Positions 7,909 to 35,139 of a stretch of 64,000 nucleotides of DNA are shown in pieces. Every line of letters begins with the position of its first letter. Position 1 is the first letter of the stretch. Position numbers and translations under genes: made by a program. Under the pieces are notes generated by a model. The model was not told the origin of the DNA. It made no database searches and was given only the letters and a program-made list of their open reading frames with translations. This stretch comes from Candidatus Cloacimonadales bacterium (lineage in GTDB: Bacteria > Cloacimonadota > Cloacimonadia > Cloacimonadales > JAIOQZ01): contig OY771587.1 of NCBI GenBank assembly GCA_963674825.1, forward strand, positions 2,560,001-2,624,000. Reading direction: 5' to 3'.

Positions 7909-7927
7909 AGTTCCTCGCCAGGTGAAC

Positions 7928-7955
7928 AGGTAGCCGTCCCGAAGGACGGCTGCCT
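7928..7955 (-). terminator. Strong 12-bp hairpin (UUCG loop) after hpf; partial terminator or mRNA stabiliser
   Basis: Minus strand AGGCAGCCGTCC-TTCG-GGACGGCTACCT; U-tract is weak. Confidence 0.55.
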
Positions 7956-7977
7956 ATTTATGAAGTTGAGAACGTTG

Positions 7978-8514
7978 TTACGGCATGAGAAGTTTGAAGT
8001 ACTGCTCGTCGCGTTTGACCAGAACGTTAATCCGGTCTGTCTCAACGTTTTTGAAGATCAGGTAAGGATCTTTCATCTTTTCAATCTGATCCATCGCTTC
8101 TTCCACAGTCATGGTTTCAGCGATGATACGCTTGGTCTTGATACGCTTTCTTGGATTAGAGTCGTCGCCATAGCGTTCGATGAGATCAGCTTGAACGAAA
8201 TGCAAATCTTCCTTCAATCTTTTTTTCTGGTGATCAGTCACCTTGTCCTTCAGCTTCTTGATCTGAGTTTCCATCTTGTCGATCACGGTGTCTACTGCAA
8301 GATACATATCGTGGTCTTCGGCTTCGCTCTGTAAGCTGAAGTGGGATGCGTGAAGTGACATTTCAACGTGGTTCCGGCTTCCTTCGAGGGAGAGCGTCAG
8401 ATGTACGTTGATGATATGATCGAAGTACTTTTCCAGCTTTTCACAAGCTTCTTCAACGTGGTCACGGATCGCGTTGGTCAGATCAAAGTGGCGTGCAGTG
8501 ATTGTGATTTGCAT
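7978..8514 (-). CDS. hpf: Ribosome hibernation promoting factor, long form (HPF/RaiA)
   Basis: MQITITARHFDLTNAIRDHV, DMYLAVD; C-terminal MTVEEAMDQ...INVLVKR domain; downstream of rpoN. Confidence 0.93.
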   Translation of the reverse strand: MQITITARHFDLTNAIRDHVEEACEKLEKYFDHIINVHLTLSLEGSRNHVEMSLHASHFSLQSEAEDHDMYLAVDTVIDKMETQIKKLKDKVTDHQKKRLKEDLHFVQADLIERYGDDSNPRKRIKTKRIIAETMTVEEAMDQIEKMKDPYLIFKNVETDRINVLVKRDEQYFKLLMP

Positions 8515-8535
8515 AATGTAACCCCTTTCTTTGGT

Positions 8536-18494: not shown

Positions 18495-18756
18495 CTTTTC
18501 AACTCTCGTAGACTGGCAATTGTGCCAGAATCAACTTTTTTCTACCTTTACGTTCCCCCAACCGCATCTTTACCCTATACGCATAACCGGTTGTAAGAAA
18601 ACCTGATGGTGCAGAAGATATTGGTTGAATGCCCCTCAATTGTATAGAAGCGATTCTGAGAAAAAAATAAAAAAATTGACAGCATCCATACGAGAAAGCA
18701 GAAATTAGTATTTTGTTGTGATTCCTTAATGAACAATGCACGGATGGTGGTTCGAG

Positions 18757-21114
18757 ATGAAAAACTCTGTACTAATAACGTTGCTTATTTTATTTGTTGC
18801 ATGTCAATCGCTCATTGCGGTTCAAAAAGTACACCTCTGGCACACCATGGAGCCGAACAAACGCCCTCTGCTGGCGGAAGTCGTCGATCAATTCATGCAA
18901 GACAACCCCGATATCGAAGTTATTCTGCTATCGAAGAATGTTGAAGAGCTTCGAACCGGTTACCAGGCTGCTGCTGCCTTTACCGGCGGTGGACCGGAAC
19001 TGGTTTACGGCCCCATGGATCAGATCGGACCTTTCGAGGTCATGAAGCTCAAGAATAGCGATAAAAGCATCATCATGCCGCTGGAAGAGGTGTTCCCCGA
19101 AGAGTTTTTCGAGAAATTCACGCCCAACGGGCTGATCCGCTACAAGGGTCACCTTTACATGATTGCAGACCGCATTGGTAACCACCTTGCTTTACCTTAT
19201 AATAAAAGACTTTTCGACGAAGAAGGTATCCCCGGACCGCCTCAGACCATCGAAGAGCTGATCGAATATGGTCAGAAGCTTACAAAGGATACCGATGGTG
19301 ATGGTAACATCGATCAGTGGGGCCTCGTCTGGAACTACACAGAACCATTCTGGTACATTCCGTTCTTCGGCGGTTACGGTGGAAAGGTTTTCGATGAAAA
19401 CGGCAAACCAGAGCTGGGCTCGCAGGCTGCTGCCGACGCCTTCCGTTTGATCAAGGACATGCGCGACGAATATAAGATCATGCCGCCTGAATGCGATTAC
19501 GATATCGCGGACAATATGTTTAACCAGGGCAACGCCGGTATGATCATCAACGGCGATTGGTCGTGGCAGAAATACATGAACTCACCTGAAGTCGATTTCG
19601 GACTGGCGAAGATGCCGTATGTCCAGGCGGCAGGTCACTGGTGTAGTCCGATGGTGTCCGCAACGGGCTATTCCATCAATTCCAACACCAAGCCCGAGGT
19701 GATGGAAGCCACCAAGAAGCTCCTGGCCTGGCTTACCGGCGAGGAAGTCCAGAAGCGCTTCGCTTCCGAATTCAAGTCGATCCCGTCCATCAAGACCCTC
19801 TACAACGATCCCGAATTTACCAACGATCCCATCGTCAAGACATCCGCCGCGCAGATCGAAGCGGGACAGCTCATGCCGATTGTTCCCGAGATGCGCGCAG
19901 CCTGGGATGCGATGCGTCCAGCGCTGCAAAGCGTCGTCGGTGGAAACATGACACCCGAAGAGGCCGCCGCCTACCAGCAGAAACTCTGTGTCCAGAAAAT
20001 CAACGACATGTATGAGGTCGCCGGTGAGGGTAGCGGAAGCAGTATTACAAAGTATATCATTTATATTGTGGGTATTGCATTGGGTCTTTACCTGACGTAC
20101 CTGCTCATCTTCAAGTTCATCCTGGCACTGCTCAGGAATCCTTACACCATGGACTCGCGCAACGCCCGGTTCGCAATCCTGATCTCGATTCCCGCCGCCA
20201 TCGTGATGTTCGGCGTGGTGGTCTATCCGTTCTTCTACAACATCGTCCTCTCGTTTTCCAACATGAACATGACCAACGTCAATTCGTGGGAAGTGATCGG
20301 CGTGGAGCAGTACGGTAAGGTGTTGTGGGATTTCGATATGAGCTTCGCAGATTACCGCAGTTCGCTCGGAGATAATTCCGGCGTAGTTATTTTCGACTAC
20401 CTCAAGTATTTCTTCTCGCACCATAAATTCATCACCGTATTTATCAAGACGCTCATCTGGACGATCGTCAACGTGTTCTTCCATGTGACGCTGGGTGTGA
20501 TGCTGGCGATGCTGATGAACAGGAAGCTGCCCGGAAAATCGATTTTCCGCGTGCTGCTGATCCTGCCCTGGGCGGTTCCGCAGTACATTGTAGCACTTAC
20601 CTGGCGCGGGATGTTCATTTCGGACACAGGCGCTATTAACCTCATCCTGGGGCATCTCGGTATAGCCCCTGTAAGCTGGCTATCCGAACCGACGATGGCG
20701 TTCATGGCGGCGATCATCACCAATATCTGGCTGGGATTCCCATTCATGATGGTCATCGCGTTGGGAGGCTTACAGTCGATTCCCAAGGAGCTCTACGAAG
20801 CGGCGGAGATCGATGGCGCGTCCTCGTGGAAGCAGTTCTGGAACGTTACGGTTCCGCTGCTCAAGCCGGTGATGGTTCCCGCGATCACACTGGGTACGGT
20901 GTGGACTTTCAACAACCTCAACGTGCTGTGGTTGGTGACCAACGGCGGACAACCCGCGGATCACTCGCATATCCTGGTGACGTACGTCTATCGGGCTGCG
21001 TTCAACCTCTACCGGTACGGCTATGCAGCAGCCTTCAGCGTACTGATCTTCATTTTCCTGGCAATCTTCGGATTGACGTTCATGAATCGCAGCCAGGTCG
21101 CGGAAAAGGCATAG
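18757..21114 (+). CDS. Fused maltodextrin-type solute-binding protein (MalE-like) + ABC permease (MalF-like)
   Basis: Signal peptide, ~420-aa SBP family-1 domain (LPYNKRLF, AGMIINGDW, MPIVPEMRAAW), then TM segments with ILPWAVP, WLGFPFMM and EAA loop ELYEAAEIDGA, in one continuous ORF. Confidence 0.9.
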   Translation: MKNSVLITLLILFVACQSLIAVQKVHLWHTMEPNKRPLLAEVVDQFMQDNPDIEVILLSKNVEELRTGYQAAAAFTGGGPELVYGPMDQIGPFEVMKLKNSDKSIIMPLEEVFPEEFFEKFTPNGLIRYKGHLYMIADRIGNHLALPYNKRLFDEEGIPGPPQTIEELIEYGQKLTKDTDGDGNIDQWGLVWNYTEPFWYIPFFGGYGGKVFDENGKPELGSQAAADAFRLIKDMRDEYKIMPPECDYDIADNMFNQGNAGMIINGDWSWQKYMNSPEVDFGLAKMPYVQAAGHWCSPMVSATGYSINSNTKPEVMEATKKLLAWLTGEEVQKRFASEFKSIPSIKTLYNDPEFTNDPIVKTSAAQIEAGQLMPIVPEMRAAWDAMRPALQSVVGGNMTPEEAAAYQQKLCVQKINDMYEVAGEGSGSSITKYIIYIVGIALGLYLTYLLIFKFILALLRNPYTMDSRNARFAILISIPAAIVMFGVVVYPFFYNIVLSFSNMNMTNVNSWEVIGVEQYGKVLWDFDMSFADYRSSLGDNSGVVIFDYLKYFFSHHKFITVFIKTLIWTIVNVFFHVTLGVMLAMLMNRKLPGKSIFRVLLILPWAVPQYIVALTWRGMFISDTGAINLILGHLGIAPVSWLSEPTMAFMAAIITNIWLGFPFMMVIALGGLQSIPKELYEAAEIDGASSWKQFWNVTVPLLKPVMVPAITLGTVWTFNNLNVLWLVTNGGQPADHSHILVTYVYRAAFNLYRYGYAAAFSVLIFIFLAIFGLTFMNRSQVAEKA

Positions 21115-21124
21115 GGAGGGTCGC

Positions 21125-21961
21125 ATGAATAAGTTCAAGAAAACCATGACAGCAATAATCGTTTACGCGATCGTCCTCTTATTCGTGGTCATCGCGGTAT
21201 ATCCCGTAATGCGCATCCTGACCATCTCGCTGCGGCCGGGCGACAATCTGCTCAACCGCTCACTGGCGATTATCCCGCAGGATGCTACGTTCGATAACTA
21301 CGTTCGCTTGTTCACCGAAAAGCCATTCCTGCTCTGGATCCGCAACAGCCTGATGATCTCCATCACGGTGACGGTGATCGGCGTGGCGTTCGCCTCACTT
21401 GCTGGATACGCGTTCTCTCGGTATCGGTTCCCGGGTCGTAAGGCTGGTCTTCTAAGCCTGCTGATCACGCAGATGTTCCCGGCGACGATGCTGCTTCTGC
21501 CGCTATTTATCATGCTTTCCAAGCTGAATCTGATCAACAGCTTCCTCGGCCTGATCATCATGTACAGCGCGACGGCTCTGCCTTTCAGCATTTGGCTGAT
21601 GAAGGGCTATTACGACACGATCCCGTTCAGCCTCGAGGAATCGGCCATGGTGGATGGTGCGGGACGGTTTTACTCATTCTGGAAGATTATTATGCCGCTG
21701 GCAGCTCCAGCGCTGGTCATCACAGCGCTGTTCAGCTTCATGGCGGCTTGGAACGAATACATTGTGGCAGCACAGGTGCTGTGGTATGAGGAAATGTTCA
21801 CAATCCCATTGGGGCTCAAGAGTCTTCAGGGCAACATGACCACCGAATGGGGTATGTATGCCGCTGGTTCGCTCCTGATCAGCATCCCGGTGGTAGCGCT
21901 TTTCCTGTTCCTCAGCAGGTGGCTTGTGTCGGGTCTCACGCTTGGCAGTGTCAAGGGTTGA
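21125..21961 (+). CDS. malG: Maltodextrin ABC transporter permease, MalG-like
   Basis: GYAFSRYRFPG, QMFPATM, KGYYDTIP, EAA loop LEESAMVDGA and GLTLGSVKG motifs. Confidence 0.9.
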   Translation: MNKFKKTMTAIIVYAIVLLFVVIAVYPVMRILTISLRPGDNLLNRSLAIIPQDATFDNYVRLFTEKPFLLWIRNSLMISITVTVIGVAFASLAGYAFSRYRFPGRKAGLLSLLITQMFPATMLLLPLFIMLSKLNLINSFLGLIIMYSATALPFSIWLMKGYYDTIPFSLEESAMVDGAGRFYSFWKIIMPLAAPALVITALFSFMAAWNEYIVAAQVLWYEEMFTIPLGLKSLQGNMTTEWGMYAAGSLLISIPVVALFLFLSRWLVSGLTLGSVKG

Positions 21962-21978
21962 GATTTCATAATGTATTC

Positions 21979-22006
21979 TTGACGAAACAAATATACGTGG
22001 TATTTT
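21979..22006 (+). promoter_or_regulatory. Candidate sigma70 promoter for the outer-membrane/surface part of the glucan locus
   Basis: TTGACG - 16 nt - TATTTT with TG extended -10. Confidence 0.5.
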
Positions 22007-22131
22007 ATTAGAGGAGTCAGGAGCCATGAGAAAGTTTCTCCTGGAATCTGACGAATATCCTTTGATTGATTCGAGGGCATAACCTCGGGGTGATGTTTTT
22101 TGCATACTAAAATAACAACAGGAGGTTCATC

Positions 22132-23514
22132 ATGAGACGAATCGGTATCGTACTGATCCTTGTTTCATTTGCAATGATCTTGAATGCGGAAATTGGATGG
22201 AGTGGTAATATCTGGCCGAATTCGGCTACGTTCCACGTCCCCACGGAAGACTTAACAATTTACTACCAGATCTGGAAAGACGGAGTGACCCCGGGTGATG
22301 GCCAGGGCGAAGACCTTGAAGCCAATTTCTACTACAGGCTTTCCGGCGAATCTGAATTTGCTTCGATGGCAATGTCCTATCTTGGTGAAGTCGGCAACAA
22401 CGACGAATACAACGTCATTATCGAAGCCGGTACATTTACCACCGGCGACCAGGTCGAATTCTTCTGCGAAGGGCACGACCTTGCTGACGACACTTATTCA
22501 TATGGAACTGACCAGGCTGGTGCAGGTCCATTCACTTCCGATGCTCCGGGAACCTATATCTTCGGTTCACCGCTGCAGCAGAATGTGACGGTTACCTTCC
22601 AGGTCGATCTGACACTGGTTGGCGTACAGGGCGATGTCTCGGTTGCCGGTTCGTTTAACGACTGGTCTGCCGGTACGAATATGCTTACCGATCAGGGCGA
22701 CAACATCTATGCAGGTGAAGTTCTCTTTTTAGCTGGTACAACCCCGATGATCGAATACAAATTCGTAAACGGCGGTAGCTGGGAAGATGCAATCGGTAAT
22801 CGCACGCTTGAGATCGACGACACCAACTCCACAATGGTTCTTGATGTTGTCTATTTCAACGACGACGATCCTGCAAACTACACCACCCAGGATGTAACGG
22901 TTACCATCAACTGTGATGTTGCCGATTCTGTGAATGCTGGTGTCGATTTCACAACCCTTTCCATTTGCGGTAGCGCATCTCCGCTCGATTGGGATTTCAC
23001 CGCGAACACCAATCCTCTTACCGACCAGGGTGACAACATCTGGTCGATCGACGTGACCTTCCCGGCTGGTTCCGAGAAGAACGTCGAATTCAAGTTCGCA
23101 CGCAACAGCATGGACGTGGAAGCTCCCGCTTACACCAACCACACCATGACGATCGACGACGCGGCTGCTACCCAGACAGTCGATGTAGTGTACGGTCAGA
23201 TGACCAACGACGTTGATGGCGGAACCGTTCCCGAATTCCAGACCGTCAATCTGCGTAACTACCCCAATCCCTTCAATCCTGAGACAACCATTGCTTTCAA
23301 CCTTGAGAAAGCACAAAACGTCGAGCTCGCGATTTACAATCTGAAGGGCCAGAAAGTTCGTTCACTCTTCCAGGGCAAAGCTCCGCAGGGTGAAACTCGC
23401 ATCGTATGGCACGGCCTGGACGATAACGGCAAGTCTGTTTCCTCTGGTGTGTACCTGATGCGCATCAAAGGTGGAAGATTCACAGCTTCCGGCAAAGTCA
23501 TCCTGCTTAAATAG
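22132..23514 (+). CDS. Secreted non-catalytic alpha-glucan-binding protein: amylopullulanase-like accessory domain + two CBM20-like modules + FlgD-Ig/T9SS-like C-terminal tail
   Basis: Signal peptide; GVT..GQG...GNNDEY domain; two VT..F/I..D...G....W...LTDQGDNI...EY/FKF....WE...NR/NH repeats; NYPNPFNPETTIAFNL...SSGVYL tail. Confidence 0.65.
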   Translation: MRRIGIVLILVSFAMILNAEIGWSGNIWPNSATFHVPTEDLTIYYQIWKDGVTPGDGQGEDLEANFYYRLSGESEFASMAMSYLGEVGNNDEYNVIIEAGTFTTGDQVEFFCEGHDLADDTYSYGTDQAGAGPFTSDAPGTYIFGSPLQQNVTVTFQVDLTLVGVQGDVSVAGSFNDWSAGTNMLTDQGDNIYAGEVLFLAGTTPMIEYKFVNGGSWEDAIGNRTLEIDDTNSTMVLDVVYFNDDDPANYTTQDVTVTINCDVADSVNAGVDFTTLSICGSASPLDWDFTANTNPLTDQGDNIWSIDVTFPAGSEKNVEFKFARNSMDVEAPAYTNHTMTIDDAAATQTVDVVYGQMTNDVDGGTVPEFQTVNLRNYPNPFNPETTIAFNLEKAQNVELAIYNLKGQKVRSLFQGKAPQGETRIVWHGLDDNGKSVSSGVYLMRIKGGRFTASGKVILLK

Positions 23515-23523
23515 CCTCATTTA

Positions 23524-23565
23524 TTCTCCCTCCGTCAGAAGGCGGAGGGAGAAAATTTATTTATT
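23524..23565 (+). terminator. 13-bp intra-operon hairpin (partial terminator or stabiliser)
   Basis: TTCTCCCTCCGTC-AGAA-GGCGGAGGGAGAA followed by AATTTATTTATT. Confidence 0.6.
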
Positions 23566-23575
23566 GGACGCGTCT

Positions 23576-24673
23576 ATGAAGTGGTTTCTTACACTGACAG
23601 TTCTCGTATTTTCAATCGCACTCACCGCCGTCACTGCATCCGACCTTTCGGGACGTATCGTCATTGACGGCTATAGCGACGATTTCGCAGCAGATGAATT
23701 CATTCTGAGCGATTCCACCGGCGTACCGCTCGAGTACTACAATGACTCTCGCTGGGGCGAAAACAACGACGTACGGCAAATCAAGGTAACATGGGATCAG
23801 GATTTCCTCTACGTCGCCGTCGATGCAACCTGCTGGGATAATAACGTCATCCTCTACATCGATATCTACGACGACTATGGTATTGTAGATATGGATGACA
23901 TGAACACCTGGAATCGTCTCTTCCGTTTTTACAACCTCAATCCGGATTTCTTTCTCGCGACCTGGGACACCAACACCAACCCGCAATTCTGGGTAGTGGA
24001 TGAAGGTTACACCGACTATGCGATCGAAGGTGGAAGCGCCAGCCTCGGCTATGAGGACTACGCTACTTTCGATACAGGCGGAAGCGGTCGTGCCCTGGAA
24101 GCGAAAATCCCTTGGGCCGAGCTCTACTACAGCGAAGAACGCTCCATGCTCAATTACCCTACCATCAAATTCGTATCGGTTATTACCGGTGGCGGTGACC
24201 ACACAGCCGGTCCCGATGCTGCGCCTGATAACCAGAGCGGTATGCCCTCCGATACGCAGACCGTTGTTCTGGACAACTACGTGGAAGTTCCTGTAGATCA
24301 GAACGGCGATGGTGAGCCGGATATGGGGATTATGCCCAATCGTTACACAACGTTTTTCAAGCGTCCACCGTTTGAATCCGAGGCCCTGAAGGTAGAACGT
24401 GTCGTTTTTCATAACGGCAAAGTCTTTGCGCCAACGCGTGGAGAAGCGCTCTCATTCAGCCTGGAAAGCAACCGCGGATCGGTTTTCGATGTTGAGATTT
24501 ATAATCTTGAAGGCAAGAAAATCGGTCTGGCGCCGCTGGTCGATGAACTCGAATGGGAATGGGCCGGACGTGATGAAGACGGAGATGTGGTGCCTTTCGG
24601 AATATACATCCTGCGTTTTATCGCAGATTCTGGAGAGGTCAGTCACAAGGAGGCGGTTGTTCTGATCAAGTAA
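23576..24673 (+). CDS. Secreted protein with CBM9/DOMON-like domain and FlgD-Ig/type-B-like C-terminal tail
   Basis: Signal peptide MKWFLTLTVLVFSIALTA; IVIDG..DDF, VTWD..FLYVA, ILYID, LEAKIPW; tail VFAP...EIYNLEGK..W.GRDEDG.VVPFGIYIL. Confidence 0.6.
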   Translation: MKWFLTLTVLVFSIALTAVTASDLSGRIVIDGYSDDFAADEFILSDSTGVPLEYYNDSRWGENNDVRQIKVTWDQDFLYVAVDATCWDNNVILYIDIYDDYGIVDMDDMNTWNRLFRFYNLNPDFFLATWDTNTNPQFWVVDEGYTDYAIEGGSASLGYEDYATFDTGGSGRALEAKIPWAELYYSEERSMLNYPTIKFVSVITGGGDHTAGPDAAPDNQSGMPSDTQTVVLDNYVEVPVDQNGDGEPDMGIMPNRYTTFFKRPPFESEALKVERVVFHNGKVFAPTRGEALSFSLESNRGSVFDVEIYNLEGKKIGLAPLVDELEWEWAGRDEDGDVVPFGIYILRFIADSGEVSHKEAVVLIK

Positions 24674-24743
24674 TCGGGTTGTGAAACATCCGGTGATTGG
24701 ACAGATGACCATCAATACAAAGAGATAAGGTTTGTAAGTTTTT

Positions 24744-25628
24744 ATGAGAAAAAAGCTGATTAAATCCAGCCCTGTGCATGGGCTGTTTATGCCGTTACTG
24801 ATCATCTTGCTGTTGGTTCCGGCAATCTCCCATGCCGACTTCAAGGGCATGAACCACGGTGCCCGTGCCTATGCGCTCGGAAACGCCTATACCGCTCTCA
24901 GCGATGATCCCACCGCGCTCTTCTGGAATCCTGCCGGCCTCACAAAGGTCAAGCAATACTCATTCACCATGTCTCACCAGAATCTCTATGGAATCTCCGG
25001 ACTGAACAGCGAGATGATCGCGTTTGCGCTGCCATTCCCGTATGTTCGCACAGGATTCGCGTGGACGCAGGTCAATCTTGAGGGTGAATATTACGAAGAC
25101 GTGTTCCATCTTGGAGCTGCATCCATTTTATGGCTGGGCGAAGTCCCGGTTCGCTTCGGCGCGACGCTGAAATATTTCCGCGTAAGTGTTCCTGGCTATG
25201 CAGACGCTAAAGAAGTCGGCAATCCCGACCTCGATTTCGGTGTGCAGGTCGAGCCCGTAAAGGAGCTGACCCTCAGCGTGGTTACCCGCAATATCTTCCA
25301 GCCGGAATTCAAGCTGGTGGAAGAGGGAGAAAAGCTTGATCGACAGTACGTCGTGGGAGCCTGCTACAGTTGGCGGGAGCTCGTCAATTTCCTCGCGGAC
25401 TACAAATGGGAAGGTGACGAAAGCCAGATGAATTTTGGCTGCGAGATGTGGTTTTACGATGTCTTTGCGCCGCGTATTGGTCTGAGTGGTGAAAATCTTA
25501 CCGCCGGCTTCGGCTTGAAATCGAGCTGGTGGACCATTGACGGAGCGGTTTACCAGCACAATGAGCTGGGCAGTACCTATCGATTGACCTTCGGACTGCG
25601 GTTCGATATGGACGACTTTGAACTATAA
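24744..25628 (+). CDS. PorV/PorQ/PorP-like outer-membrane beta-barrel (UPF0164-type)
   Basis: GARAYALGNAYTALSDDPTALFWNPAGL signature; alternating beta-strands; HNELGSTYRLTFGLRF near the C-terminus. Confidence 0.8.
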   Translation: MRKKLIKSSPVHGLFMPLLIILLLVPAISHADFKGMNHGARAYALGNAYTALSDDPTALFWNPAGLTKVKQYSFTMSHQNLYGISGLNSEMIAFALPFPYVRTGFAWTQVNLEGEYYEDVFHLGAASILWLGEVPVRFGATLKYFRVSVPGYADAKEVGNPDLDFGVQVEPVKELTLSVVTRNIFQPEFKLVEEGEKLDRQYVVGACYSWRELVNFLADYKWEGDESQMNFGCEMWFYDVFAPRIGLSGENLTAGFGLKSSWWTIDGAVYQHNELGSTYRLTFGLRFDMDDFEL

Positions 25629-25638
25629 GGATTACTCA

Positions 25639-27147
25639 ATGAAAAAACGAACGATCGCATTGATTCTGATCCTGTTGGTTGCCGCATTGCTGAAGGCCGG
25701 TCCTATTAAAATGGAAGGTTACCTGGAGGGGCAGTTCGGCAGAACCTACGACTCAGATGAATACAAATGGAATATGTGGGATCCGAATTACTATATCGAA
25801 ACCCGCTTCTTTTCCAGTCCTTTGAAAAACGCCGAGATGTTCTTCAAGATCTATGCGGATAACGACAAGGGAACCGACACGTATAAAAACTCCGGACGTG
25901 CGGAAGCGTTGCTTGGCGAAGGCCATGTCCAGTACCTCTACGAGAAATACGGTTGGGGTGCAAAGAGTGTCTTGTTCACCCGTGAAAGCGGTCACTACTG
26001 GACGGACGGCTCCATGCTCGGTATCGTCAATACCGGATCGGTGAACAACGGCGGTAACGGACAGGGTGTCCGCTTCGATACGTGGTATCCGTACGGTGGA
26101 AGCTTCACCTATGTTTTCTCTGATTTCTCATCAGGTGAAGGCGACGATGTGCACCTCATGCGCTATCGTCAGAGCCTATCGGAACGCGTACGCTTTGGCG
26201 TATTCTATCAGAGGAAGAATTATTCCACTGCGCAAGAGAACGACTACAACGAAGTCGCCGCAGTTGATTTCCATGCGGGTATGGGACGCTATATCCTTAA
26301 CACCGAATTTGCATGGAGCGACGTACCTGCTGAGGAAGATGTTCAGGCGCAGAATGACGAATATTCCGGCTTCAACGATTTCTTCAAATCAAATGTCGCC
26401 GCGAAAGCCGAACTCATGGGATTCCGCATTGGAACGGCGAAGCTCGGCTACATCCTTATGAAACCGGGTGTCTGGTCATACGGCGATACGTATCGCAATT
26501 ACATGGGAGAGGATCACCGCAATGAATACGGCTACTGGCTGGATACGAAGTATCTGGTTCCAAACCGCGCTATAACCATTACGTTGAACTACTCTACATG
26601 GCGCAATCAGGTGGCGGATACTGTCTATGTTACGACGCTGCAAGATACTATGTATGTCAGCAAACCCAAGGAAGTTTACAATCCAGGAACCAACCTCTAC
26701 AGCGAGATGTATATCGAGTTTGTGAAAGGCTTCAAGGGTAAGGTTTTCTTCAACAAAAAAGACGAAGAAACCAACAACACATTGGAAAAACACTACGACC
26801 TTTTCATGGAGCTCTCTGTGGAAAACCGGCTCGCCAAGCTCCTTACCCAGTTCAAGATCAAGGACATGGGAGAGGATTCGGAGGTGCAGCTTACCGGCGT
26901 GGAGGTCAGCGTTAATCTCACCGACAAATGGAAGTTCTTCATGCGCGGCATGATTGCCACGGACGATGTGGGTTCGCGTCACAGTATCTTCGGTGAGATT
27001 CAATACCGTCTCAGTGGCAACACCGAGCTCTACCTGCAATACGGACCAAGCTGGTGGGGTCAGTACGGACTGGTCAACGACGACAGTTTTGCAACCGGTG
27101 GCGACATGCAGAAGGAAGTGAAGCTGATCCTCAAAGGATGGTTCTGA
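25639..27147 (+). CDS. Uncharacterised outer-membrane beta-barrel protein
   Basis: Signal peptide; Tyr/Phe/Gly-rich amphipathic strands; C-terminal VKLILKGWF beta-signal. Confidence 0.65.
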   Translation: MKKRTIALILILLVAALLKAGPIKMEGYLEGQFGRTYDSDEYKWNMWDPNYYIETRFFSSPLKNAEMFFKIYADNDKGTDTYKNSGRAEALLGEGHVQYLYEKYGWGAKSVLFTRESGHYWTDGSMLGIVNTGSVNNGGNGQGVRFDTWYPYGGSFTYVFSDFSSGEGDDVHLMRYRQSLSERVRFGVFYQRKNYSTAQENDYNEVAAVDFHAGMGRYILNTEFAWSDVPAEEDVQAQNDEYSGFNDFFKSNVAAKAELMGFRIGTAKLGYILMKPGVWSYGDTYRNYMGEDHRNEYGYWLDTKYLVPNRAITITLNYSTWRNQVADTVYVTTLQDTMYVSKPKEVYNPGTNLYSEMYIEFVKGFKGKVFFNKKDEETNNTLEKHYDLFMELSVENRLAKLLTQFKIKDMGEDSEVQLTGVEVSVNLTDKWKFFMRGMIATDDVGSRHSIFGEIQYRLSGNTELYLQYGPSWWGQYGLVNDDSFATGGDMQKEVKLILKGWF

Positions 27148-27206
27148 TGAATACGACAAACTATATACATGATAAATATTTGAAAAACGATGGAACAGGA
27201 GATAGA

Positions 27207-29279
27207 ATGAAAGCGCCCCAAAAGAGTCGGCTTGGTAAAGCAACACGATCACTAACGCTGGTCTTACTCATTCTTCTGGCAGCGCCATGTTTATGGCTCC
27301 ATGCCGCTGTGAAAGAGGTTGCCGGCGGTGTACAGTTCCTGTATGACGCGCCGGATGCGCAGTCCGTCTCGGTGGCGGGGTCGTTCAACGAATGGAACAC
27401 CTCGGCGTCACCGATGAGCATGAACGATGACGGTATCTGGACCGTCACCGTCAAATTGCCTCCCGGAAAGCATCAGTACAAATTTGTGGTCGATGGTAAC
27501 TGGTATTTCGATCCCGATCATAGCAACCTGATGGACGATGGCTACGGCGGATCGAATTCACTGGTGGAGATAGACGGTAAAGGTAAGATGGTCGCTGCTT
27601 CGCAGGTTGAATTCAAGCGTGACGGCATCGCCAGCATGATCAACCCGAAGGTCTTTTTCAATGGCCGTTACTATGCGAAGTACATCTTCGAGAAAGAAAA
27701 GGACGAATCGCGCTATATGCTCGACAAACCGTTGCATGTTATCGATCTCGGCCTGAAAATCCGTTTCAACGACCAGTTTGAAGGCTACACGGTGATGAAT
27801 ATAAACAACACCGATGAAGGCACCGATATGTGGAAAACGCATCTTACCTTCAAACGGACCTATCTCAAGCTTAAAACAGAATATTTCAAGCTGACCGCTT
27901 TCGATAAATACGGCTTCATCACCCTTGACGATCCACTGCACATGGTAGGTGACATCGGCCGCTATGGATATGCCTTCGGTTACGACCAGCGCGGTGTGTA
28001 TGCAAAGACGGCAGATGAATTCTTCGACAACCTCATGGGCAGTGTTCCGATCCGCTTCGAAGTGGAAGGACTCTACTCCGACGACGCAGGCGATTCCGAA
28101 AACGATACAGGTGCAGGTCGCCTGAAAACAAGCTGGCTGGTTTCGCAGCGTGAGAACAACGAAAAGACCCTCCGTCTTGGTGGTACGATGTACGGAACAA
28201 GGATCTCATCATCAACGCTTCTGCAAAAGCATGACAGCTACGGTTTCGATATTGCATACGAACACAGCATGATGGGATCGAACTGGAAAGCTCCCATGAA
28301 GTTTATGGTCGATGCTGAATATTACTCCTTCGAAAACCGTGATAACTACAAGAATTACGGTCAGGAAAACTACGAGTACATTACGGAAGAAGAAAACACC
28401 TGGATGGAAGGTAATGCCGGTTGGTTTGGCCTTCAGGTCGATTTCCCGGCAGCGCTCAAGCTGAACGCCAACGTCCAGACCAATACTGTCGAATGGACGA
28501 TCGGTACTGGTGCAAATCCGAACGGACTTGTGCCGAATCCCGAGACGACCAAAGAAGAAGTTACACGAAATCGTATCGGTTTCGGCGCAGATTTCGAAGC
28601 AGGTAATTTCACTGCCAACATCGGCATGAAATACTGGACCTACGAATTCCCTGATTCGCTCGTAAGCTGGTACGACTACTACCAGTATATGGAACGCACC
28701 GACGGTAATGGCCGCTGGTTCCAGCGCTACTCCGATGTCCCGTTCAATCGCTACACCGTGCTTGGCTACGAGGAAGCGCTCACCTGGAATCTCTCGCTGG
28801 GATACAAGTTTGATCTGCTGTTACCGATCGATATCGATTGGGATGCGAACTTCACTCACCAGGGCTTCATGCGAGAAGCGAAGTTCATCGAGAACGTGAT
28901 TGCGGTGGGTATTCATCTCACCGATCAGTGGATGATTTGGTCAAGCACACGTGTGCCGTACTACAACGATCCCTACATGGGCCTCGAAACTGATTTCGGT
29001 AACGACGAAGATGTTTGGGTAAGCAACTACTCAGAACTCGCCTATATCCTTTCGGATCAGGTGCGCATCTCCTTCGGCTGGGGCGTCAATCCGCGCGCAC
29101 TCAACGCTGTCACGGATGAGTTCTATAACGGCGGACGCGACGAATTCCTGACTGAAGCTTCCGACTACGAAGAATACACCGAAAGTGCATACCTTGGAAC
29201 CGGTGAGAAGATTCGCCAGGCCGAGCAAGCGCTCGAGAACGAAAAACGCTTCATGCTGGAAGCTACCTTGAGGTTTTAG
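27207..29279 (+). CDS. CBM48-like (AMPK-beta-type glycogen-binding) domain fused to an uncharacterised outer-membrane beta-barrel
   Basis: AGGAGA RBS, signal peptide, F.YDAPDAQSVSVAGSFNEW...HQYKFVVDGNW..DP...DDGYGGSNS, then ~550 aa of amphipathic strands ending FMLEATLRF. Confidence 0.75.
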   Translation: MKAPQKSRLGKATRSLTLVLLILLAAPCLWLHAAVKEVAGGVQFLYDAPDAQSVSVAGSFNEWNTSASPMSMNDDGIWTVTVKLPPGKHQYKFVVDGNWYFDPDHSNLMDDGYGGSNSLVEIDGKGKMVAASQVEFKRDGIASMINPKVFFNGRYYAKYIFEKEKDESRYMLDKPLHVIDLGLKIRFNDQFEGYTVMNINNTDEGTDMWKTHLTFKRTYLKLKTEYFKLTAFDKYGFITLDDPLHMVGDIGRYGYAFGYDQRGVYAKTADEFFDNLMGSVPIRFEVEGLYSDDAGDSENDTGAGRLKTSWLVSQRENNEKTLRLGGTMYGTRISSSTLLQKHDSYGFDIAYEHSMMGSNWKAPMKFMVDAEYYSFENRDNYKNYGQENYEYITEEENTWMEGNAGWFGLQVDFPAALKLNANVQTNTVEWTIGTGANPNGLVPNPETTKEEVTRNRIGFGADFEAGNFTANIGMKYWTYEFPDSLVSWYDYYQYMERTDGNGRWFQRYSDVPFNRYTVLGYEEALTWNLSLGYKFDLLLPIDIDWDANFTHQGFMREAKFIENVIAVGIHLTDQWMIWSSTRVPYYNDPYMGLETDFGNDEDVWVSNYSELAYILSDQVRISFGWGVNPRALNAVTDEFYNGGRDEFLTEASDYEEYTESAYLGTGEKIRQAEQALENEKRFMLEATLRF

Positions 29280-29288
29280 GGAGGAAGC

Positions 29289-29705
29289 ATGAAAAAAATC
29301 CTGATTCCTCTGGTCATCATCCTGCTAGTTGCGGGATGCGATCTTAACTTCATCAAGAAACGTCTTCCGCCGCCCCATAAGTCGAAAGAAGGCGTGATAT
29401 TCCAGTACGAGGCACCTTCAGCGAGAATGGTAACCCTGGCCGGCGACTTCCCGGATAACCTCTGGGGTGGAACCGCCTCCACCAGCGCACAATACGATCC
29501 CAACATCGATAAAATGTACGACGACGGTACGCACGGCGACCTCGAAGCTGGTGATGGCATCTGGACGCTTGTGAAAAAGCTCCCGCCCGGAAGATACACC
29601 TACAAATACGTGGTCGATCGTAATTCGTGGTTCACGGATCCCAACGCGCTCGATTACACAGATGATGGCTACGGCGGAAAGAATTCCGTACTGGTTATCG
29701 AATAG
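29289..29705 (+). CDS. Small lipoprotein with CBM48-like domain
   Basis: LLVAGC lipobox; FQYEAPSARMVTLAGDF...YTYKYVVD...DP.....DDGYGGKNSV; inserted MYDDGTHGDLEAGDGIW loop. Confidence 0.8.
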   Translation: MKKILIPLVIILLVAGCDLNFIKKRLPPPHKSKEGVIFQYEAPSARMVTLAGDFPDNLWGGTASTSAQYDPNIDKMYDDGTHGDLEAGDGIWTLVKKLPPGRYTYKYVVDRNSWFTDPNALDYTDDGYGGKNSVLVIE

Positions 29706-29722
29706 ATTATGAGGAACGAATT

Positions 29723-30691
29723 ATGAAATGGATTGCAAGCATATTCGCCATATTGTTGATCTTCGCCGCATGCGAAGATACGCCCACTGATAGCCCCTAT
29801 TCTCACAACGCCTCGATAGAGGGTTATGTGCAGTTTGAAGAGGCTACGACTGATACGTTGTCCGCAAACGTTGAGGTATATTTTACCACCGACAGCGATG
29901 AAACCATCAAGGTCGCCGAGACAACAACCGATCAGACCGGTTACTGGCGTGTGGATGGACTGACCGCAGATGAATATTTCATCTACTTCTATTCGGACAC
30001 CTACGGTAGCACCAACGCCACGGCTACGGCTGTAGCGAACGAGATCACCATGGTCGATACGGTCACGTTCGAGTACTCCGAACCGATCGAATTTCGCGAG
30101 ATCACTGTGGACGGCGATTCTACCGACTGGGATCAGCCCATATACGAGAACAATCATGCTTCCGACTGGGGCCCGAACAACTTCGAAAACCTCTATATGG
30201 CTCAGAACGAAACCCACCTCTTCATCTGCCTGACTGGTGAATTCTCGTCATCGGACAACGCGGTCAATATCTACCTCGATACCGACTTCGTTGCAGGAAT
30301 CGGTGTAAGGGATTTCTCTACCATCGCGGGTGGCGATCCGGGTAATCAGCTAAGAAAGAATGTCGTGGTCAATGCACCTGAGGCATTCGGTGCGGATGTG
30401 GCCCTCACCAACTGGGCGCTGCAGAATCCACTTCTGGTAAGCCTCGCCGACCCGACAGCTGTTGATTCGAATGTACTGGAGGCTGAAGTAGCCATGACGG
30501 CAAGCTGTATCGAGCTTGCGATTCCGTTTGAGCAGCTTTATGGGAGCAGTAGTGCTCCGAGCGGACAGAAAATTGCGCTGGTTGCGATCATCGGTGGTGG
30601 CGGCGACGCTTATTTCGCCGGTGACTCAATTCCGCAGCAAACGAATGTCGCCAGTTTCCAGAGCGTCATCGAAGCCATGTTATCTGAATAA
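29723..30691 (+). CDS. Lipoprotein with prealbumin/carboxypeptidase-regulatory-like domain + CBM9/DOMON-like domain
   Basis: IFAAC lipobox; TTTDQTGYW..GL; ITVDGDSTDW, IYLDTD and IELAIPFEQLY motifs. Confidence 0.6.
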   Translation: MKWIASIFAILLIFAACEDTPTDSPYSHNASIEGYVQFEEATTDTLSANVEVYFTTDSDETIKVAETTTDQTGYWRVDGLTADEYFIYFYSDTYGSTNATATAVANEITMVDTVTFEYSEPIEFREITVDGDSTDWDQPIYENNHASDWGPNNFENLYMAQNETHLFICLTGEFSSSDNAVNIYLDTDFVAGIGVRDFSTIAGGDPGNQLRKNVVVNAPEAFGADVALTNWALQNPLLVSLADPTAVDSNVLEAEVAMTASCIELAIPFEQLYGSSSAPSGQKIALVAIIGGGGDAYFAGDSIPQQTNVASFQSVIEAMLSE

Positions 30692-30712
30692 TCAAGCATT
30701 GGAGGAGAGTCC

Positions 30713-33700
30713 ATGAGGAATATATTCATCTCTGTATTGTTTGCTGTCGTGCTCGTCATAGCCGGCTGCGCCACCCTCGGTTTCGGTGATTTCGAAGGAG
30801 AGACCCGTCATGCCGATTCAGGTGCGACCGAGCAGGTGAGCGCTGGCACAACTACACTAACCTATATCAACCCGAGCGCTAATAGCGTTCACATAGCCGG
30901 TTCGTTTAACGACTGGAATTCAAGTGCCACGCCGATGAAAAAAGTCGGTGAAAAATGGCAGGCGAATCTCGATCTTGAACCGGGTGAATACATGTACAAA
31001 TTCGTGATCAACGGTGCTGACTGGATCGCTGATCCTAAAAACGACAACACCGCGGACGACGGATATGGTGGTGTGAATTCTGTGCTGACCGTTACCGGTT
31101 CGGCAAAGAAGACCGATCGCGATTTCAAACCGAAGAAGGCCGAAGCATCAGATGGAACCGTGGTTACCTATAAAGATGGTGGCGCGACATCGGTATCGAT
31201 CGCGGGTGAATTCAATAACTGGGATATGGCCGCTAACCCGATGACCAAAGACGGCGACACCTGGTCGGTAGCGCTCGATCTGGCTCCGGGAGACTATATG
31301 TACAAATTCGTGGTCAACGGCTCCGACTGGAAGGTTGATCCGAACAATCCCAATACTGCTGATGACGGTTACGGCGGACAGAATTCAGTCCTGACAGTCG
31401 GCGGAACCGCGAAAAAGGCAGCCAAGAAAGAAGCTCCCAAGCCGGTGATGACCGAAGGCGGTACTGTGGTAACCTACAAGGACGCGGGTGCTTCATCGGT
31501 ATCGATTGCTGGTGAGTTCAACAACTGGGATATGGCCGCAAACCCGATGACCAAAGACGGCGACACCTGGTCGGTAGCGCTTGATCTGGCTCCGGGCGAC
31601 TACATGTACAAATTCGTAGTCAACGGTTCCGACTGGAAGGTTGATCCGAACAATCCCAATACTGCTGATGACGGTTACGGCGGACAGAACTCAATACTGA
31701 CTGTCGGTGGAACCGCGAAAAAAGCAGCCAAGAAAGAAGCTCCCAAGCCGGTGAAGATTGAAGGCAGCACCATCATGACATACAAAGACGCAGGCGCAAC
31801 ATCGGTATCGATCGCGGGAGATTTCAATAATTGGGATATGGCTGCAACTCCGATGACCAAAGACGGCGACACCTGGAAGGTTGGGCTGGACCTGGCTCCG
31901 GGTGAATACATGTATAAATTCGTAGTTAACGGCTCCGATTGGAAAACCGATCCGAAAAATGACAACAAGGCGGATGATGGCTACGGTGGACAAAACTCGG
32001 TGCTGATAATCGGCGACGGGCAAAAAACGGGGGAGAAGAGCGTGTCAACGAAAGTAGAACCAAAGACCGCAGCGGGTGACGTACCGGTTACTTTTACTTA
32101 CCAACCGCTGATCGGTGGCAAGCACGATATCTATGTAGCCGGAGATTTCAACGAGTGGTCTCCCACGGCGAACAAGATGAAAGAAGACGCCGGTATCTAT
32201 TCGACGACCATGAACCTTCAGCAGGGTAAATACGCCTACAAATTCGTGGTCGATGGCAACTGGATTACGGACGAAAACGCTGTCGAATTCGCTGGTGACG
32301 GTTATGGCGGCCAAAACTCGATCGTCTATGCCGGTGACCCGAAAGAGCTCAACGCGCTGCGTAAGGTCAAATTCCGCTACAAACCCGGTAAGATCGTTAA
32401 AGATGTCTATCTCGCCGGTTCTTTCAATGCTTGGAACCAGAAAGAAGACCGCATGCTCGATACCGGTGACGGTACCTACGAAGTGATCCTGCTTCTCAAA
32501 CCGGACGAATACCACTACAAGTTCGTGGTTGACGGCATGGAATGGCTGCACGATCCAAACGCGCAGCGTTATGCGGACGATGGCTTTGGCGGCAAGAACT
32601 CCGTCGTGCTGGTTGATGACAGCTTCCCTATCGTGACCCTCGAGAAAGCCGATGGTCAGATGCTCATATACGGTATCTCCACAGAGCAGACCATCGAGAC
32701 AGTCAATCCGCTTTCCGAAAAGACGGTTGAGTTCAAGACAAAGGCTCATCTGAACGATGTTGAGAATGTCACCTTCTGGAAAGACGGTAAAGAGATGCCC
32801 ATGAAGCTCATCTCCGAAGACGGAAGCTTCGAATACTACAAAATTTTGATCGATACACCGAATCCGGACGAACAGTTCGATTACTGCTTTATCTACCATG
32901 ACGGTGATAAGAAATTCTACCTGCTGAACGGCGAGATCGTCGAGAAGATGGATCGCACGAAGCTGTTCCATTACCCGGTCGAAGGCTTGGAACCCTTCAT
33001 CACCCCCAACTGGGTCAAAGAAGGCGTGATCTACCAGATCTTCCCGGAACGCTTCTACAACGGAAGCAAGGCCAACGATCCCGATTTCAGCGAATGGTAC
33101 TACGATGGCATGCGCACTCCGCCGCCCAAGGGCAAGAAGCTTGCCAAAGATCAGGTCTATTACCGTCTGATCAAAGACTGGTACGACATTGCTCCGCTTA
33201 CCAGCAATCCTTACCACCCGGAAGGAAAGCCGGACTGGTGGGCGTTCTATGGTGGTGACATCGTCGGTGTCCACGAGAAGCTTGATTACCTTCAAGACCT
33301 CGGCATTACCATTATCTATTTCAACCCCATCTTCCAGGCACGTTCGAATCATAAGTACGACGCTGCCGATTACATGAAGATGGACCCGCATTTCGGAACC
33401 GAGCAACAGCTCAAGGACTTTGTTAAAGACGCGCATTCACGCGGAATTCGCATCATCCTCGACGTGGCGTTCAATCACACTGGTGACGCTTTCTGGGCTT
33501 TCCAGGAAGGCAAGAAGAACGGTCCTTCTTCGCCGTACTACACTTGGTACGAATGGAAAAAGTGGCCGATTCCCGAAGGGAACTACAACCCTGCCGATTA
33601 CTACGAATGCTGGTGGGGATTTGGCGAAATGCCGGATCTAGATTACGACCGCAGCCGCCCCAACCCTTCCGAAAACTCGATTACGGATATCAGCCAGGCA

Positions 33701-34558
33701 GAACCCAACCAGCCGGTTGTGGACTACATCCTCGGTCTGGTCGATTATTGGATCGGTGATGTGGGATTCGACGGCTTCCGTCTCGACGTTCCCAACGAAG
33801 TCCCGTTCTGGTTCTGGAAACTTTTCCGCGAACGCGTGAAAGAGGTGAAGCCTGACGCGTACCTGGTGGGCGAGATCTGGAGCAACGCGGTTGACTGGGT
33901 CAACAACGATTACTTCGATGCCGTGATGAACTACGCCTACTTCAAGGATCCGGTGCAGCGCTTCTTCAACCAGCGCAATTGCAGCGCACGCATGTTCGAT
34001 CGCGATCTCAAGCCCGGCCTGCTTACTTACCCGACGCAGGCGACCCAGGTCATGATGAACCTCATTGACAGCCACGACACCTTCCGCTACCTCGAAACAG
34101 CTGGTGGTGACGTGAACAAGCTTAAGATGGCGGCTTTCTTCCAGATGACTTACGTGGGCGCTCCGCACATCTGGTACGGCGACGAAATTGGTATGATGGG
34201 TAAGCACGATCCCGACTGCCGTCGTCCGTTTGAATGGAACTACACCGGCGACAAGGATCGCGTTGCGCTTCGTGACTTCTACAAGAAGCTCATCCAGATC
34301 AGAAAGGAAAACCCCGCGCTTTCCAAGGGTGACTACAAGACCCTGCTAACACGTGATATGGTCTATAGCTATCTGCGTGAGTACAAGGGCGAAAAGATTG
34401 TCTGCGTGATCAACAACGAGCTCGAGCCGCGCGATATCGAAGTGGACGTTCCTGTTACCGGAACTCTGACCGATCTGATGTCCGGCAAGACCTTCACCGT
34501 CAAGGGCGGAAAGCTTACGATCCACCTTGATGGACAGACCGGCGCAATATTGAAATAA
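30713..34558 (+). CDS. Lipoprotein GH13 alpha-glucan hydrolase (neopullulanase/cyclomaltodextrinase-like) with six tandem CBM48-like modules and a CBM34-like domain
   Basis: LVIAGC lipobox; six ..AG.FN.W...Y.YKFV.....DP/E....DG.GG.NS modules; P.WVK.GVIYQIFPERF; GH13 regions DVAFNH, GFRLDVPNE, EIWS, NLIDSHD; GKHDPDCRR. Confidence 0.93.
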   Translation: MRNIFISVLFAVVLVIAGCATLGFGDFEGETRHADSGATEQVSAGTTTLTYINPSANSVHIAGSFNDWNSSATPMKKVGEKWQANLDLEPGEYMYKFVINGADWIADPKNDNTADDGYGGVNSVLTVTGSAKKTDRDFKPKKAEASDGTVVTYKDGGATSVSIAGEFNNWDMAANPMTKDGDTWSVALDLAPGDYMYKFVVNGSDWKVDPNNPNTADDGYGGQNSVLTVGGTAKKAAKKEAPKPVMTEGGTVVTYKDAGASSVSIAGEFNNWDMAANPMTKDGDTWSVALDLAPGDYMYKFVVNGSDWKVDPNNPNTADDGYGGQNSILTVGGTAKKAAKKEAPKPVKIEGSTIMTYKDAGATSVSIAGDFNNWDMAATPMTKDGDTWKVGLDLAPGEYMYKFVVNGSDWKTDPKNDNKADDGYGGQNSVLIIGDGQKTGEKSVSTKVEPKTAAGDVPVTFTYQPLIGGKHDIYVAGDFNEWSPTANKMKEDAGIYSTTMNLQQGKYAYKFVVDGNWITDENAVEFAGDGYGGQNSIVYAGDPKELNALRKVKFRYKPGKIVKDVYLAGSFNAWNQKEDRMLDTGDGTYEVILLLKPDEYHYKFVVDGMEWLHDPNAQRYADDGFGGKNSVVLVDDSFPIVTLEKADGQMLIYGISTEQTIETVNPLSEKTVEFKTKAHLNDVENVTFWKDGKEMPMKLISEDGSFEYYKILIDTPNPDEQFDYCFIYHDGDKKFYLLNGEIVEKMDRTKLFHYPVEGLEPFITPNWVKEGVIYQIFPERFYNGSKANDPDFSEWYYDGMRTPPPKGKKLAKDQVYYRLIKDWYDIAPLTSNPYHPEGKPDWWAFYGGDIVGVHEKLDYLQDLGITIIYFNPIFQARSNHKYDAADYMKMDPHFGTEQQLKDFVKDAHSRGIRIILDVAFNHTGDAFWAFQEGKKNGPSSPYYTWYEWKKWPIPEGNYNPADYYECWWGFGEMPDLDYDRSRPNPSENSITDISQAEPNQPVVDYILGLVDYWIGDVGFDGFRLDVPNEVPFWFWKLFRERVKEVKPDAYLVGEIWSNAVDWVNNDYFDAVMNYAYFKDPVQRFFNQRNCSARMFDRDLKPGLLTYPTQATQVMMNLIDSHDTFRYLETAGGDVNKLKMAAFFQMTYVGAPHIWYGDEIGMMGKHDPDCRRPFEWNYTGDKDRVALRDFYKKLIQIRKENPALSKGDYKTLLTRDMVYSYLREYKGEKIVCVINNELEPRDIEVDVPVTGTLTDLMSGKTFTVKGGKLTIHLDGQTGAILK
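31154..32014 (+). repeat. Three tandem 306-bp (102-aa) intragenic repeats encoding CBM48-like modules 2-4
   Basis: GGGATATGGC recurs at 31221, 31527 and 31833; long identical stretches such as GACTGGAAGGTTGATCCGAACAATCCCAATACTGCTGATGACGGTTACGGCGGACAGAA at 31325 and 31631. Confidence 0.95.
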
Positions 34559-34579
34559 CCTGTAAACCCAGGAGGAAAT

Positions 34580-35068
34580 ATGCGAAGCCTTGAATTTGCT
34601 ATCGAGATGGAAAAAGAAGGTGAGGCGTTTTACCGCGAACTCGCGAATCAATGCGATCAGAAAAGCGGGATAAACTACATCTTCACCATGCTTGCCGATG
34701 ACGAGAGCAAACACCGCCGCGTGTTCATGTCGATCATGCAGTCAAACCCGGAGATGATGCAGGACACCAAGGTTCTGCAGGAGGCAGACAATCTCTTTAT
34801 GAAGCTGCGCTCCGAGAACCGGGCTGTCGATTGCGGCTCGGATCAAGTCGATCTCTACAAAGAGGCGCTTGACATGGAGATCAAGTCCATTGATCTATAC
34901 GAGCAAGCACTCTTGGATATGGATGACGAAAGCGGCAAAAGCCTGCTTAAACGGATTATCACAGAGGAAATGAAGCATAAGAAAATCCTGGAAAATATCA
35001 TCGAACACGTGAATCGGCCCAATGAATGGATCGAAGATGCCGAGTTCAATCAGAAAGAAGAATATTGA
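34580..35068 (+). CDS. Ferritin-like / rubrerythrin-family di-iron protein
   Basis: AIEMEKEG..FY, LADDESKH, ALDMEIKS..LY and EEMKH (duplicated E..E..H). Confidence 0.85.
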   Translation: MRSLEFAIEMEKEGEAFYRELANQCDQKSGINYIFTMLADDESKHRRVFMSIMQSNPEMMQDTKVLQEADNLFMKLRSENRAVDCGSDQVDLYKEALDMEIKSIDLYEQALLDMDDESGKSLLKRIITEEMKHKKILENIIEHVNRPNEWIEDAEFNQKEEY

Positions 35069-35104
35069 TTGAGATAAGTGCATCGATCACGTATTGAAAA
35101 TTTG

Positions 35105-35139
35105 AAGGCGAATCAGTTAATACTGGTTCGCTTTCTTTT
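35105..35139 (+). terminator. Intrinsic terminator ending the glucan locus
   Basis: AAGGCGAATCAGT-TAAT-ACTGGTTCGCTTT followed by CTTTT. Confidence 0.75.

Follow-up and report, generated by a model that had tools for sequence, protein, structure and literature searches.

Two paralogous barrels as candidate TonB-independent channels in an alpha-glucan locus of a Cloacimonadales bacterium

In Cloacimonadota, SusD was detected in only 6 of 202 genomes, and yet the use of starch is credited to the phylum. The accessible part of PMC8542988 annotates mal permease genes on the contig of one related locus (L028) and infers starch use, and neither a porin nor a carbohydrate-binding module of family 48 (CBM48) was found in the searchable part of its supplements. 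Glycoside hydrolase family 13 (GH13) and CBM48 are listed for Cloacimonadota in the accessible part of PMC12590816, without the barrels described here, and a secretion system of type IX (T9SS) may occur in the phylum, according to the available part of PMC11285876. The present analysis concerns a window of 64,000 nucleotides (the whole stretch analysed; positions 2,560,001 to 2,624,000 of contig OY771587.1) from a Candidatus Cloacimonadales bacterium, whose genome is a single contig, 99.57% complete. Within it, eleven co-directional open reading frames (18757-35068; g1 to g11 in Table 1) encode parts of a maltose-type ATP-binding cassette (ABC) importer, T9SS cargo, a PorV/PorP-like shuttle, two large barrels (A and B), CBM48 proteins and a GH13. 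A preliminary description had proposed that surface binders and a surface hydrolase feed maltodextrins through a new barrel family to a fused importer.

We consider it likely, with a probability of roughly 0.7, that A and B are TonB-independent alpha-glucan channels which supply MalEFGK and a neopullulanase in the periplasm, while binders displayed by the T9SS act outside; glycogen, starch and pullulan are the likely substrates. The T9SS would export g3 and g4, the latter being held on the surface by its own shuttle, g5, and binding the polymer there; its cutting would fall to secreted enzymes whose genes lie elsewhere, for example a GH57-like T9SS protein. Dextrins would then cross through A and B, probably together and without TonB. 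Judging from topology and signal peptides, the CBM48 modules of B, g8 and g10 would catch them in the periplasm and keep their free concentration low, and the GH13 would trim them. Finally, by homology, MalE-MalF and MalG would import the maltooligosaccharides with a MalK-type ATPase, which is encoded elsewhere in this genome and inside the locus in other lineages. Passage of maltodextrins through the barrels is what we infer.

As the preliminary description had stated, the locus proteins give no TonB receptor, SusD or LamB family match in Pfam or NCBIfam. A search of the genome with PF00593 returned four TonB receptors, with neither A nor B among them and no recognisable alpha-glucan genes beside any of the four. 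SusD (PF07980) and LamB (PF02264) gave no match in the genome, with positive controls in B. thetaiotaomicron and E. coli, respectively. One of the six SusD-bearing Cloacimonadota genomes also carries A, and SusD was found in none of 10 other barrel-bearing genomes.

The gene order is conserved around barrel A, both in 79 GTDB loci (from the best 80 of 81 matches) and in 80 loci from metagenomes (the top 80 among 142 matches), some of which repeat GTDB loci; related genomes are not independent in these or in the genome counts below, and each count refers to loci with enough flank. Five genes form the core, namely a DOMON/CBM9-like T9SS cargo, a PorV-like shuttle, barrel A, the CBM48-barrel B and a CBM48 lipoprotein. 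The shuttle lies upstream of A in 65/65 GTDB and 48/51 metagenome loci, B downstream of A in 52/55 and 37/39, and the lipoprotein (g8 in the window) after B in 51/55 and 36/39, and a cargo gene stands directly 5' of the PorV/PorP-like barrel in almost every locus. Where 9 kb could be read on both sides, GH13 was present in all 31 GTDB loci and malE/F/G in 25 of them, and an alpha-glucan marker was found in 16 of 18 metagenome loci. Other neighbours include GH77, phosphorylase, amylo-1,6-glucosidase and a large Glucodextran_C cargo. The number of CBMs on B ranges from one to three; in L151, counted as a miss for B, it carries two CBM20 in place of CBM48, and a CBM48-GH57 stands in for GH13 in several loci. 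To judge from these domains, function is kept while parts are swapped. The alpha-glucan link put forward in the preliminary description, and the co-conservation across phyla whose absence would have refuted it, are thus borne out by gene order and by the GH13 and mal neighbours in other genomes.

Within Cloacimonadota, barrel A occurs in 24 of 202 genomes (0/87 in the largest family), and a MalG with at least 74% identity in 23, of which 22 are among the 24 with A. In a second phylum, that of a Krumholzibacteriia-titled genome, 74 of 181 genomes match barrel A, 67 of them at E <1e-100, and the locus names candidate channels in a family without a curated model which is present in more than a third of that phylum's genomes. 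The closest barrel relatives, among the best 80 of 81 matches, are in Cloacimonadales-titled records. In the phylum of a Marinimicrobia-titled genome, a full match was found in the seed only, of 251 sampled. In a quick tree with 67 rows, the Marinimicrobia-titled copies branch within those of Cloacimonadota, which suggests that they may have been acquired by transfer. Eisenbacteria and Elusimicrobiota gave single leads, among 151 genomes a Verrucomicrobia-titled match alone was strong, and Archaeal- and Patescibacteria-titled matches are probably misbinned. Fibrobacteraceae, Latescibacterota and Gemmatimonas, which are submitter labels, were considered as extra phyla and rejected, as those genomes that were checked share their phylum with the Krumholzibacteriia-titled one.

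A second type of MalG is present in 12 Cloacimonadota genomes without A, six of which were read. In five of the six, a different barrel-like protein of about 600 residues is encoded in the genome's own mal locus among GH13 and Glucodextran_C genes, as would be expected if such loci need a channel; in the sixth, the contig ends after malG. The proteins of this family (barrel C, 35 relatives) end in Phe and have no Pfam or NCBIfam match; profile comparisons with A and B (33.7%, largely over the N-terminus; 1.4% and 3.8%) do not support kinship.

The barrel domains of A and B have no significant sequence match in Pfam, NCBIfam or the PDB. The sole family match of A in Pfam and NCBIfam is DUF5095 (E 0.005), none of its 67 distant relatives has a significant family match in the barrel, and a wide A profile found nothing in the PDB. 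The model of A (predicted local distance difference test, pLDDT, 90) has 24 long strands, and that of B (pLDDT 86) a CBM48 followed by 22, both counts being taken from the secondary-structure strings of the models and not from coordinates. The barrel of A extends from residue 24 to 501, and its first strand therefore leaves no room for a plug or a TonB box. The N-terminal domain of B is a CBM48 and not a TonB plug. A domain that precedes strand 1 of an even-stranded barrel lies on the periplasmic side, and the CBM48 of B is therefore predicted to lie there. The fold matches of B are generic (best Z 14.5, root-mean-square deviation, rmsd, 5.2, 258 aligned), with maltoporin 1mpr (Z 12.7, rmsd 6.9, 299 aligned) amid many other barrels. 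LamB is not among the top 50 fold matches listed for A, although the two may be alike. On these comparisons, neither barrel is a TonB receptor or can be recognised as a LamB homologue; either finding would have refuted the preliminary proposal.

By profile comparison, A and B are remote paralogues: the match reaches 95% (E 3e-8, 398 columns), and 97% over 160 columns in a second comparison, with wider alignments being needed since narrow ones gave 13.7%. When the present genome is searched with the wide A profile, B comes in second place (E 8e-8), ahead of a DUF6029 protein (E 1.8e-4). DUF6029 barrels are also the nearest named look-alike of A (Atlas 0.96), and the DUF6029 family itself gave no match in A or its 67 relatives. 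Many near-invariant charged residues, together with W149 and Y358, lie in the strands of A, and fewer are conserved in B; from strand alternation, those of A would face the lumen. Two distant relatives of A, P0197 and P0211, have an extra N-terminal domain, which is CsgG-like in P0211 (named Elusimicrobiota).

The best PDB matches of the GH13, g10, are alpha-amylase II/neopullulanase (E about 1e-110), the catalytic D1025, E1054 and D1122 are all present, and the protein carries a lipobox. Its orthologues in the second phylum have a plain signal peptide, without lipobox or secretion tail by eye, which indicates the periplasm, and g10 is most likely periplasmic, like SusA. The CBM48 modules of B, g8 and g10 probably face the periplasm as well, and a route to the surface is available to g3 and g4 only. 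The hydrolase and the CBM48 binders, which had been placed on the surface, are hence better placed inside, in view of the orthologue signal peptides and the position of the CBM48 of B.

Several observations weigh against TonB-independent channels, in addition to the overlap and relatedness within the samples and the origin of the strand counts given above. In L090, A has no B nearby. Five divergent cores (L175-L179) keep A, B, the shuttle and a CBM lipoprotein, and four of them also a recognisable cargo, but neither malEFG nor GH13 lies within some 9 kb; sugar permeases were found only at 30-36% in their genomes (4/5), and one genome has no GH13 match at all. Related GH13 are encoded in 141/202 Cloacimonadota genomes, most of them without A, and are therefore too widespread to be used as a co-occurrence test. 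In this genome the lipoprotein g10 could face outward. Lastly, the best fold matches of A are the PapC/FimD ushers (Z 16.5-18.4, rmsd 4.3-7.6, about 10% identity), which export protein.

It is unlikely, in our judgement, that the barrels form an usher-like export or assembly channel through which CBM lipoproteins or the GH13 reach the surface, with small sugars entering by general porins. The fold matches, the small beta-sandwich of g8 and the existence of cores without an importer nearby speak for this; however, at about 10% identity and with Z-scores near those of unrelated 18-strand channels (up to 16.0), the likeness reflects mostly barrel size. A has a 24-strand barrel in common with the chaperone-usher system, but the usher plug and the periplasmic N- and C-terminal domains, including those that bind chaperones, are absent from its model, and there is no usher family match. 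Moreover, the genome already encodes SprA (TIGR04189 above cut-off, 2043-residue frame; above cut-off in 3/5 other genomes), and the GH13 orthologues of the second phylum have no lipid anchor.

Just as improbable are closed, non-conducting scaffolds or sensors that bind carbohydrate in the manner of Wzi and either serve as the anchor of a surface complex or fix the cell to glycogen particles. The models of both A and B contain long inter-strand segments that could fill the lumen, and the five cores lacking a nearby importer would suit such a role, but the CBM of B on the periplasmic side makes most sense if substrate arrives there, A co-occurs tightly with the MalG orthologue, and none of the loci read showed a recognisable regulator gene.

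Energised uptake, in which TonB or the T9SS motor would move a CBM48 that serves as a plug (in B its own, in A that of g8 acting in trans), is very improbable. B, with 22 strands and an N-terminal domain, has the layout of a TonB receptor, and a barrel as wide as one of 24 strands would call for a stopper; against this, no family match to a plug or a TonB receptor was obtained, the Foldseek TM-scores of B with TonB receptors are 0.23-0.38, the variable number of CBMs on B makes them a poor fit as a plug, and no tonB or exbBD gene was recognised in the loci read. Equally remote is a module that exports or remodels cell-made alpha-glucan (capsule or surface glycogen) while MalEFG recycles fragments, for although phosphorylase, GH77 or GH57 branching enzyme adjoin some loci and AlgE-type exporters are among the fold matches, the barrel-A loci that were read hold no recognisable glycosyltransferase or inner-membrane exporter, and surface binders, hydrolases and the importer dominate them.

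With A and B taken as channels, the system works like a porin coupled to an ABC importer, and belongs to neither the LamB nor the Sus family. In the enterobacterial system, MalS is the periplasmic amylase and LamB is an 18-strand trimer. Klebsiella CymA likewise admits bulky dextrins without TonB; chain 4d5b, which we take to be this cyclodextrin channel, is far smaller (312 residues) and gave a generic fold match only (Z 12.2, rmsd 6.1). The Sus and maltoporin-MalEFGK routes are described in PMC13543919, the accessible part of which mentions neither Cloacimon- nor CBM48. The LamB, MalS and MalEFGK route has in common with the present locus passive outer-membrane entry followed by MalEFGK import (PMC13543919, same part), as well as a periplasmic amylase, whereas here LamB gives no family match, there are two paralogous barrels (about 24 and 22 strands), a CBM48 is fused to one of them, and the binders would be displayed by T9SS. 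SusABCDEFG of Bacteroides shares surface binding proteins, a periplasmic neopullulanase like SusA and one locus per glycan (PMC13543919, same part), but the present locus has no plugged TonB receptor and no SusD, its candidate surface binders are T9SS cargo, and an ABC importer is linked. Type B cargo of the T9SS stay bound to PorP-like barrels, according to the parts available of PMC9143113 and PMC12618676, and in both such PorP/SprF pairs and this locus the cargo gene adjoins a PorV/PorP-like barrel; here, in contrast, g4 and g5 are tied to two large barrels.

More tentatively, and with doubt on balance, the two paralogous barrels might be one complex, capped outside by the binder that the T9SS shuttle holds as a stand-in for SusD, with CBM48 modules ratcheting long or branched dextrins into the periplasm without TonB energy and an unrelated barrel family doing the same job in other Cloacimonadota. 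If A and B are channels as proposed, a barrel fused to a starch-binding module would widen known sugar uptake, and a T9SS shuttle holding a glycan binder beside a channel would widen the known use of T9SS outside Bacteroidota. In the literature searched by title or abstract start, with subscription journals mostly outside coverage, no description of the barrels was found, and the outer-membrane module appears undescribed there.

Among the remaining genes, the MalE-MalF, MalG, GH13 and ferritin-like assignments of the preliminary description agree with Pfam and NCBIfam. MalF and MalE are the best NCBIfam matches of g1, below cut-off, and its best PDB match is 6ffl (E 1.4e-101, 388-residue chain), presumably, from its chain length, a Bdellovibrio protein. 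The fused importer had been regarded as a trait of the architecture, yet malE and malF are fused in 11 and separate in 12 of the 31 full-flank GTDB loci. The fusion is confined here to Cloacimonadota and Marinimicrobia-titled copies and is documented in Bdellovibrio in the available part of PMC6906923; it is already known and lineage-specific, and not a defining trait of the system. The ferritin-like gene, found in 1/79 loci, is a passenger and not part of the system.

The two secretion-tail cargo proteins announced earlier fare differently: g3, which varies from locus to locus, has a T9SS type A tail above cut-off (Pfam, NCBIfam), whereas the tail of g4 is a weak profile match (E 0.042), neither type A nor type B above cut-off, as in its orthologues. 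Both of the CBM20-like modules expected at the locus are the CBM20/X25-like ones of g3. In place of two CBM9-like modules, a domain with weak similarity between g4 and g9 (22% over 179 residues, E 7e-4) is common to both, for which the Atlas look-alikes, Glucodextran_C (0.91) and CBM9_1 (0.88), are leads only. In other lineages, g4 takes forms of 1000-2100 residues with Glucodextran_C, some with CHU_C tails, and g9 is replaced by a CBM48/X25 lipoprotein. The shuttle g5 is nearer PorV_fam (E 3e-16, below cut-off) than PorP. In the tether of g8, Cys, Arg9 and Pro13 are invariant in 67 rows, and this short conserved segment may dock on a partner. The D-G-x-G-G-x-N-S signature does occur eight times across three genes, once each in g7 and g8 and six times in g10. 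T9SS tails gave at least 150 matches across the genome, which also encodes several members of the PorV family.

The locus had been read as a tightly spaced, co-directional run with one terminator. The direction holds, but a gap of 170 bp with a promoter-like site follows malG, and a hairpin follows g3. Both hexamers of the post-malG site are kept in three of three close relatives, in which the remaining gap sequence diverges, and hairpins lie at the equivalent place after g3 in L001-L003; the kept site and the hairpin make it probable that the stretch comprises two transcription units, with a second promoter after malG. The -35 hexamer upstream of malEF is also kept in L001-L003, no operator motif common to 11 sequences from upstream of malEF was apparent, and Rfam gave no match in 17000-40000.

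Table 1. Coordinates of the features (positions in the window, except for barrel C, whose genes are given by locus)
Feature	Position	Strand	Remarks
Promoter-like site 5' of malEF	18676..18704	+	-35 hexamer at 18676; consensus match only
g1, MalE-MalF fusion, 785 aa	18757..21114	+	SBP_bac_1 + BPD_transp_1
g2, MalG permease, 278 aa	21125..21961	+	Pfam, NCBIfam
Internal promoter-like site 3' of malG	21979..22006	+	promoter scan
g3, T9SS type A cargo, two CBM20/X25-like modules, 460 aa	22132..23514	+	accessory
13-bp hairpin 3' of g3	23524..23553	+	hairpin scan; partial terminator or stabiliser
g4, cargo, DOMON/CBM9-like domain and divergent T9SS tail, 365 aa	23576..24673	+	core
g5, PorV/PorP-like shuttle barrel, 294 aa	24744..25628	+	core; alternative start 24789 possible
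g6, barrel A, 502 aa, with about 24 strands and without a plug at the N-terminus	25639..27147	+	model
g7, barrel B, 690 aa, N-terminal CBM48 and about 22 strands	27207..29279	+	paralogue of A
g8, CBM48 lipoprotein, 138 aa, conserved N-terminal tether	29289..29705	+	core
g9, lipoprotein, Ig-like and DOMON/CBM9-like domain, 322 aa	29723..30691	+	accessory
g10, GH13 neopullulanase-like lipoprotein, six CBM48, 1281 aa	30713..34558	+
g11, rubrerythrin/ferritin-like gene	34580..35068	+	passenger; Pfam
Terminator-like hairpin, short T run	35104..35139	+	14-bp stem in fold; absent from terminator-scan list
Barrel C genes	L083:11951-13753, L084:7885-9687, L082:7000-8790, L085:11777-13699, L087:5373-7181

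In the gap after malG, a unit of about 47 bp is present in three copies in L003 (6180-6400), one in L002 (6280-6450) and none in the window. After the locus, at 35271-38252 of the window, lies a T9SS cargo gene whose product has beta-propeller and fn3 domains; it was not observed to be a conserved component. In L148, an additional barrel-like gene of 538 residues (7241-8857) stands between B and the CBM48 lipoprotein. Two CBM lipoproteins are encoded in L179, and four of L175-L179 lie near a gene of about 910 residues that resembles pyruvate phosphate dikinase by eye. An apparent B-g8 fusion in L116 and an A-B fusion in L151 were rejected as wrong-frame open reading frames in high-GC DNA.

Elsewhere in the genome (contig C1), an unlinked pullulanase with a signal peptide (2806336-2809329), a g3-like T9SS protein with X25 modules (3830565-3833891) and a CBM20 protein (2705806-2709396) are probable further parts of the alpha-glucan set. 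In several loci, a conserved secreted protein of about 1150 residues, which contains X25 modules as well as either a T9SS tail or a dockerin, is encoded 3' of GH13 (L010:17860-21447, L017:17033-20431), with an orthologue elsewhere in the present genome (C1:2137329-2140904). Its core has no Pfam match and a weak match (E 0.012) to a 4-alpha-glucanotransferase, which we take to be GH57, and the protein may be a candidate divergent GH57 that cuts outside.

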